NCBI GenBank assembly: GCA_023430775.1
Contig: JAEYYY010000677.1
Location: forward strand, 1 to 10,238
Length of the DNA: 10,238 nt
Source of the DNA: Pseudomonadota bacterium
GTDB taxonomy: Bacteria > Myxococcota_A > Polyangia > Haliangiales > Haliangiaceae
Direction of reading: 5' to 3'
Below the pieces are notes generated by a model. That model saw only the letters and a list, made by a program, of their open reading frames with translations, searched no databases and had not been told where the DNA came from. The first letter of the stretch is position 1; every line of letters starts with the position of its first letter. A program made the position numbers and the translations under genes. Below, piece after piece: positions 4,643-4,753 of the stretch.

Positions 4643-4657
4643 AGCCGCGACACCAGG

Positions 4658-4673
4658 TGCAGGGCGCGATCCA
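4658..4673 (-). promoter_or_regulatory. Candidate sigma54 (RpoN) -24/-12 promoter for rtcB.
   Basis: The - strand reads TGGATCGCGCCCTGCA, with GG-N10-GC spacing as in the consensus TGGCACG-N4-TTGCW. The -24 element TGGatcG matches at 5 of 7 positions and the -12 element cTGCA at 4 of 5. The GC of the -12 element lies about 17 nt upstream of the rtcB ATG, implying a very short leader of roughly 5 nt. The location is as expected for an RtcR (bEBP)-activated rtcB promoter, as in E. coli. GG-N10-GC can occur by chance in GC-rich DNA. Confidence 0.4.
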
Positions 4674-4689
4674 CCTCGAACGCACGTAA

Positions 4690-4702
4690 GATCAATGAGT
4701 TG
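4690..4702. promoter_or_regulatory. IHF-like site between the GATAAC repeats and the sigma54 element.
   Basis: gATCAAtgagTTG matches the IHF consensus WATCAANNNNTTR at 12 of 13 positions, with only the first W mismatched. It lies about 17 nt upstream (in the rtcB direction) of the -24 element. An IHF bend between the upstream activating sequence and a sigma54 promoter is the classical architecture. Confidence 0.25.
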
Positions 4703-4715
4703 AAGGAATCGCAAC

Positions 4716-4751
4716 GATATCAGTAGATAACGAGTTATCCTATAAGATAAC
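4716..4751. promoter_or_regulatory. Array of GATAAC/GTTATC half-sites, a candidate RtcR upstream activating sequence/operator, in the rtcR-rtcB divergent intergenic region.
   Basis: The motifs are GATATC (4716-4721), agta, GATAAC (4726-4731), ga, GTTATC (4734-4739), ctataa, GATAAC (4746-4751). Two perfect 6-bp inverted repeats share the central GTTATC, one with a 2-nt spacer and one with a 6-nt spacer. They sit in the only AT-rich stretch of the window (about 4685-4753) and abut the rtcR ATG at 4754. A TATAAG -10-like hexamer at 4741-4746 lies 7 nt before the rtcR ATG, which suggests a leaderless rtcR transcript. Overlap with a half-site suggests autoregulation. Confidence 0.4.
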
Positions 4752-4753
4752 GG

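Follow-up and report, generated by a model that had tools for sequence, protein, structure and literature searches.

The window is the whole stretch of DNA that was analysed, 10,238 nucleotides in length. The rtcB and rtcR genes are found in it as divergent and adjacent neighbours, separated by an intergenic region of 111 bp (4643–4753). The two genes and the elements between them are as follows.

3419–4642, minus strand: rtcB, coding sequence of an RNA ligase of 407 amino acids (PF01139, 441 bits), with its ATG at 4642–4640.
4643–4647, minus strand: predicted rtcB leader CGGCU of 5 nt, from an inferred start near 4647; clade members share the 15-nt spacing, and no Shine-Dalgarno sequence accompanies it.
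4658–4673, minus strand: predicted sigma54 promoter TGGATCGCGCCCTGCA, with the -24 GG at 4672–4671 and the -12 GC at 4660–4659.
4690–4702, plus strand: IHF-like core gATCAAtgagTTG, with its centre near -50 relative to the predicted rtcB start.
4716–4731, no strand assigned: distal, degenerate RtcR-type dyad GATATC-AGTA-GATAAC, with half-sites at 4716/4718 and 4726 and its centre near -76.
4735–4750, no strand assigned: proximal, near-consensus RtcR-type dyad TTATCCTATAAGATAA, with its centre near -95 from the predicted rtcB start.
4741–4746, plus strand: TATAAG, a possible -10 element of rtcR inside the proximal dyad, proposed from geometry only.
4754–6313, plus strand: rtcR, coding sequence of 519 amino acids with a CARF domain, an AAA+ domain (GAFTGA at residue 261) and a C-terminal HTH.

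RtcR belongs to the NCBIfam equivalog NF038308 (736 bits, cut-off 650) and matches the Pfam families PF06956 (253 bits) and Sigma54_activat. Its named close homologues carry the labels Kofleriaceae, Haliangiales or Deltaproteobacteria. The N-terminus of RtcB (MSTNYQLF...) aligns with the E. coli start MNYELL (locus L081). Since both N-termini align with the E. coli proteins, the 111-bp intergenic region is well bounded. Reading of the in-frame codons by hand from the promoter to the ATG leaves 4642 as the sole usable rtcB start. The rtcB frame itself stays open for 885 nt upstream of the true ATG (3419–5527, minus strand), across the intergenic region and into rtcR, and an automated gene caller could therefore predict an over-long rtcB.

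A gene for a vault-protein-like product of 853 amino acids (780–3341, minus strand) follows rtcB on its strand after a gap of 77 bp. Its domains are a major-vault-protein shoulder and a vault repeat, and it fills the position of rtcA in E. coli. An RtcA cyclase gene in the operon is typical of the RtcR-regulated RNA repair family, although not universal. When the window was searched with E. coli RtcA by tblastn, no match had an E-value below 4. Neither the Rfam nor the tRNA scan gave a match in the window, and no rpoN or ihf gene is visible within these 10 kb. A ferritin-like gene is located at 9558–10121.

The initial annotation described the intergenic region as the only AT-rich segment of the window, and the base composition bears this out. 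The 100-nt segments starting at 4641 to 4711 have 43–51% GC against 67% overall, while the lowest values elsewhere, in segments of the same length, are 53–55%. The repeat-bearing stretch has 39% GC. An 11-nt direct repeat, CGAACGCACGT at 4677–4687 and CGAAAGCACGT at 4760–4770, flanks the enhancer region; relatives do not conserve it, and it is probably due to chance.

A sigma54 element had been proposed for rtcB, and TGGATCGCGCCCTGCA, read at 4673–4658 on the minus strand, agrees with TGGCACG-N4-TTGCA at 9/12 positions. Its GG and GC doublets are separated by 10 nt. The proposed distance of about 17 nt to the rtcB start codon is also right, the A of the ATG being the 17th nucleotide after the C of the GC doublet. 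Conservation of GG-N10-GC among relatives had been put forward as a check. In an alignment of 11 loci of the clade (alignment A2) the GG and the TGCA are invariant, and the element is found in 20/20 clade loci. Within the clade the distance from the -24 element to the distal half-site is constant at 42–44 nt. Most dyad-bearing loci in the wider collection described below carry a sigma54 promoter with 9–12 of 12 matches on the opposite strand, 50–155 bp from the dyad centre. Measured to the GC doublet, the dyad centre is 52–155 bp away in most of the other loci that have both elements. The cognate enhancer-binding protein is present as well, namely RtcR with its GAFTGA motif and Sigma54_activat domain. 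The notion that this region is exceptionally compressed does not hold, as dyad-to-promoter distances of 52–66 bp are observed in other phyla.

The IHF-like site is found where it had been claimed. ATCAATGAGTTG at 4691–4702 is the sole match to ATCAANNNNTTR in 10.2 kb, with 0.07 expected. GATCAATGAGTTG matches the IHF core WATCAANNNNTTR at 12/13 positions and misses only the W position. No A/T-rich tract is seen 5' of the core, the 10 nt upstream being ACGCACGTAA. Cores with at most one mismatch occur in 6/20 clade loci (0.9 expected; maximum 3 in 300 shuffles), and those of the remaining loci are degenerate. All six matches lie on the same strand at an offset of 17–18 from the -24 element, several weaker matches share this offset, and the TT of the core is conserved in alignment A2. 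These regularities support a candidate conserved bend site at the IHF-like core.

The GATA/TATC repeats occupy the positions given by the initial annotation: GATATC at 4716–4721, GATAAC at 4726–4731, GTTATC at 4734–4739 and GATAAC at 4746–4751. Scored with a matrix built from the dyad TTATCC-N4-GGATAA, the proximal dyad (4735–4750) reaches 20.0 of 20.6 possible and is the sole match of at least 9 in the window. Its end falls 4 nt short of the rtcR ATG. The distal dyad is imperfect and reads TATC-N4-GATA or, in register, GATA-N6-GATA. It aligns with TATC-N6-GATA of the relatives, its left half being 2 nt off register. GATAAC-N2-GTTATC had been singled out as the palindrome to look for in relatives. 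It is present, but the recurring unit is TATC-N6-GATA. GATAAC-N2-GTTATC was rejected as a functional unit; it represents the junction between two N6 dyads (GATA-N6-TATC).

Two collections of rtcR loci were compared. The genome set comprises 80 rtcR loci from species genomes, retrieved via CARF-domain alignment, together with E. coli K-12, and counts were taken over 82. The second, separately retrieved set comprises 80 metagenome loci, with counts over the 74 that are non-identical. Chance expectations were obtained from dinucleotide-preserving shuffles of the same regions upstream of rtcR. Within 100 nt upstream of rtcR, TATC-N6-GATA is found in 27/82 genome loci against 0.23 expected, GATA-N6-TATC in 16/82 (0.34 expected), and same-orientation pairs of half-sites at N16 in 30/82 (0.6 expected). 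No other half-site spacing gave a comparable peak in these 82 loci. The metagenome set gave TATC-N6-GATA in 28/74 loci against 0.27 expected, with a maximum of 3 loci in the shuffles, and GATA-N6-TATC in 23/74. The motif upstream of rtcR is thus enriched about 100-fold in both sets. When the matrix was trained on the genome set only and applied to the metagenome loci, the 160 nt ahead of rtcR had 5.5 matches per kb and the rest of the same loci 0.03 per kb, a difference of about 180-fold. A match of at least 9 lies within 160 nt of rtcR in 52/74 metagenome loci.

From the peaks at N6 and N16 it follows that half-sites alternate in orientation at intervals of 10 bp, which amounts to two dyads with a 20-bp separation. 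After symmetrisation the consensus reads tTATC(C/T)-N4-(G/A)GATAa, and the unit tTATCC-N4-GGATAa is usually present in two copies 20 bp apart. Loci bearing the motif come, among others, from Myxococcota, Gamma- and Alphaproteobacteria, Acidobacteriota and Planctomycetota. The gammaproteobacterial carriers include Siccibacter and Pectobacterium, and two Pectobacterium loci (L046, L049) carry TTATCCCATAGGATAA with a score of 20.3. The array of E. coli K-12 is degenerate, with GATA, TATC and TATA at 10-bp steps and no matrix match of at least 9. In the proposed comparison of orthologous intergenic regions, the palindrome family recurs beside rtcR, and the repeats of the window are not a product of chance. 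The C-terminal HTH of RtcR (SLSxAGRxLF...NDADRLRKYLARFGL) is nearly invariant across the motif-bearing phyla, which fits a shared DNA site. The GATA/TATC repeats probably mark where RtcR binds DNA.

A clear upstream dyad is absent in about one third of the rtcR loci, and some of these show a variant half-site, TAGC. Sites resembling TTAGCT-N4-AGCTAA, or CTATAG/AGCTAG, replace TTATCC-N4-GGATAA in eight loci (L149, L158, L160, L161, L153, L154, L122 and L131). Such TAGC-type sites may be a variant RtcR half-site. No obvious differences in the HTH were seen between loci with and without the motif. The initial annotation had called the RtcR recognition motif poorly characterised, and our literature search agrees: it found no nucleotide-level site, apart from one computational profile from 2016 for a single genus. 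That profile is the RtcR binding profile for Pectobacterium in SigmoID (PMC4888284). It covers one genus and the present pattern many phyla.

In the closest relatives a further gene, coding for a TIGR02996/LRR-repeat protein, stands between the dyad array and rtcR. It is found in L002 (756–2121) and L083 (from about 225 onward), and also in L001 and L082, and it begins 1–4 nt past the last GATA half-site. In L002 and L083 about 75 nt lie between the array and the rtcB ATG, and the window has the same distance. It follows that the array is not linked to rtcR as such. As it always abuts the first rightward gene, the roles of an rtcR-side operator and an rtcB enhancer are inseparable here.

The start of rtcB transcription can be predicted from E. 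coli, where a -1/+1 primer ApC was used for PrtcBA (PMC9650030). The E. coli sequence has a single AC dinucleotide, by which +1 falls on the 11th nucleotide after the promoter 16-mer. The same geometry, applied to the window, predicts a start near 4647 and a leader of about 5 nt. Taken over every locus where rtcB is adjacent, the spacing between the promoter 16-mer and the rtcB ATG is bimodal: 16 distinct loci have 12–15 nt, the others at least 23 nt, and none has 16–22 nt, save one artefact in which a second ATG was picked. Among the 16 short-spacing loci, 14 show anti-Shine-Dalgarno pairing no better than -2.7 kcal/mol, while most loci with at least 23 nt carry an AGGAG-type Shine-Dalgarno sequence. 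In the clade the length of the spacer is kept despite its diverged sequence. In the window, rtcB starts with ATG, and pairing with the anti-Shine-Dalgarno core CCUCCU amounts to -1.5 kcal/mol. GGUG at 4655–4652 was rejected as a Shine-Dalgarno sequence of rtcB, since relatives do not conserve it and the predicted start lies downstream of it. The spacing gives good indirect support to an rtcB mRNA with a short leader in the clade. A caution comes from one short-spacing locus, L004 (about 2395–2420). There the 13-nt gap between the -12 element and the rtcB ATG contains a perfect GAGGAG, 6 nt ahead of the ATG. This site would be usable only if transcription began further upstream, and its presence conflicts with a start at the 11th nucleotide past the promoter.

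The start of rtcR is less clearly defined. TATAAG lies at 4741–4746 as proposed and ends 7 nt before the rtcR ATG. It is without the conserved final T. At this position TACAAG or TGCAAG is found in the nearest relatives, and other clade members instead have TATTAT overlapping the half-site. A scan of 4400–5000 for sigma70 promoters and terminators called nothing and so lends no independent support to an rtcR promoter. The gene starts with ATG, and pairing with the longer 16S 3' tail amounts to -2.2 kcal/mol. The initial annotation had both genes leaderless and without Shine-Dalgarno sequences. The second part stands for both genes, and a short leader is backed for rtcB by the bimodal spacing. 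A leaderless rtcR mRNA is plausible, and the case for it is weak.

Our preferred interpretation, which we hold with good but not full confidence, is that the AT-rich island serves the divergent control of an RtcR-regulated RNA-repair operon, with rtcB driven by a sigma54 promoter that is assisted by an IHF-type bend and an RtcR enhancer, the latter also overlapping the rtcR start. Conservation across loci supports this three-part reading, which had already taken the palindromes as the candidate RtcR site. RtcR dimers would bind the two tTATCC-N4-GGATAa dyads via the C-terminal HTH, with centres near -76 and -95; being 20 bp apart, both dyads would lie on one face of the helix. An IHF-type protein would bend the DNA near -50, at the ATCAA-N4-TTG core. 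With its CARF domain relieved, RtcR would contact sigma54-RNA polymerase at TGGATCGCGCCCTGCA through its AAA+ ring, and the promoter would open. The transcript, covering rtcB and the vault-protein-like gene after it, would begin about 5 nt before the rtcB ATG and so have no Shine-Dalgarno sequence. As the proximal dyad ends only 4 nt before the rtcR ATG, bound RtcR would probably limit transcription of rtcR too.

That last step raises the question of whether the dyads might be mainly, or only, the operator and promoter of the rightward unit, serving rtcR autoregulation and not activation of rtcB. The proximal dyad does lie about 10–36 nt from the rtcR ATG in nearly all loci, often overlapping the ATG as GATATG. 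The inserted gene of L083 begins 4 nt past the last GATA, the same distance as for rtcR in the window, and some members of the clade have the left half-site lengthened to TATTAT, which is asymmetric and -10-like. An operator alone is nevertheless improbable in view of the strict dyad symmetry, the 20-bp phasing, the sigma54 promoter 50–155 bp away and the constant 42–44 nt between the -24 element and the distal half-site in the clade. Symmetry, phasing and promoter distance are properties of the enhancer of an NtrC/PspF-type activator. Operator and enhancer roles can also coexist, as is reported for PspF. It is very improbable that the repeats serve another regulator, such as a Fur-like protein recognising GATAAT-type hexamers. 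GATAAC/GTTATC resembles Fur-box hexamers and a ferritin-like gene lies in the same window, but the consensus geometry of the Fur box is GATA-N5-TATC. This spacing occurs in 0/82 and 0/74 loci, against 16 and 23 loci for N6, and the motif follows rtcR across phyla and is far rarer elsewhere in the same loci. The Fur-box reading was rejected on this spacing, N6 being enriched and N5 absent. That the palindromes arose by chance in AT-rich intergenic DNA could be suspected from half-sites of just 4–6 nt in a stretch of 39% GC. It is refuted to near certainty by the shuffles, whose maximum of 3 loci compares with 28 observed.

For the rtcB mRNA, a start further upstream, or a sigma54 start elsewhere, would yield a longer leader that still has no Shine-Dalgarno sequence. 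This is possible, if on balance unlikely. The GAGGAG inside the short spacer of L004 speaks for it, and weak use of Shine-Dalgarno sequences is common in some lineages. Against it, the spacer of 12–15 nt is maintained in 16 distinct loci despite sequence divergence, the range of 16–22 nt is empty apart from the artefact, strong Shine-Dalgarno sequences are found mostly where the spacer reaches at least 23 nt, and the scan of 4400–5000 contained no other promoter-like site. A bolder form of the short-leader reading concerns a Myxococcota clade (Haliangiales-like, with some Polyangia). There the sigma54 promoter would give rtcB a leader of 2–5 nt, and translation would be independent of a Shine-Dalgarno sequence, carried out for example by ribosomes with a damaged 16S 3' end. 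We regard this as speculative and rather unlikely. No description of sigma54-driven leaderless mRNA was found in the literature searched.

The E. coli rtcR-rtcBA control region, reportedly treated by Genschik et al. in 1998, is the closest known system. Its genes are orthologous and divergent. It too has a sigma54 promoter of rtcB and an IHF site, with an upstream activating sequence beside rtcR, and GATA/TATC/TATA half-sites phased by 10 bp lie just upstream of rtcR. A comparison of the two regions shows clear differences. The E. coli region is 188 bp long with the array near -130 to -140, while that of the window is 111 bp long with dyads near -76 and -95. The E. coli promoter matches at 12/12 positions and is followed by a 38-nt spacer after the 16-mer, in contrast to 9/12 positions and a 15-nt spacer without a Shine-Dalgarno sequence. 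The proximal dyad of the window is much better than any in the E. coli array, and the window lacks rtcA and has the vault-protein-like gene after rtcB. The same three parts, an upstream activating sequence, an IHF site and a sigma54 core, make up the E. coli rtcBA promoter (PMC9650030, Kotta-Loizou et al. 2022). The control region in the window is of an ordinary sigma54 kind.

Other divergent activator loci share part of this layout. In the PspF-pspA system of E. coli the activator gene is divergent, the activator sites are intergenic and overlap its own promoter, which leads to negative autoregulation, and IHF binds between these sites and the sigma54 promoter. The likeness extends to the divergent activator, the intergenic sites and the position of IHF. 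PspF differs in having no sensory domain and other sites, and the pspA leader is normal. In Myxococcus xanthus the gene of the enhancer-binding protein PexR is divergent from its sigma54 target ahpC, and pexR is predicted to be leaderless, with at most 5 nt (PMC12754779). This locus is myxobacterial too and has its sites in a short intergenic region. It differs in regulator, site sequence and signal, and there only the regulator gene is proposed to be leaderless, not the sigma54 target. A side observation concerns tRNA-like genes: L070 (2059–2225, minus strand) carries two of them, Asn-GTT and Gln-TTG, between rtcR and rtcB on the rtcB strand. The pair recalls the Pelobacter rtc locus, which has a tRNA-like gene (PMC3543383).

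The short leader has a parallel of its own. In E. coli, MazF cleavage at an ACA reportedly turns the rtcB mRNA into a leaderless form (Temmel et al., PMC5416887). In both cases nearly no 5' leader would be left and translation would proceed without a Shine-Dalgarno sequence, as predicted for the window. The difference is that the short leader of E. coli reportedly arises by cleavage, whereas that of the window would be set by the position of the promoter. The specialised-ribosome model is disputed.

The RNA-repair response under RtcR control is widespread. The consensus tTATCC-N4-GGATAa, in two copies 20 bp apart, offers a concrete candidate site with which RtcR regulons would become predictable in many genomes. 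The conserved spacing of 12–15 nt provides a natural test of whether a sigma54 promoter can yield a translatable, near-leaderless mRNA, and also of whether synthesis of the repair enzyme is built to work with damaged ribosomes. If the short-leader reading is true, the clade would set by promoter position the same end state that E. coli reportedly reaches by MazF cleavage of the rtcB leader.
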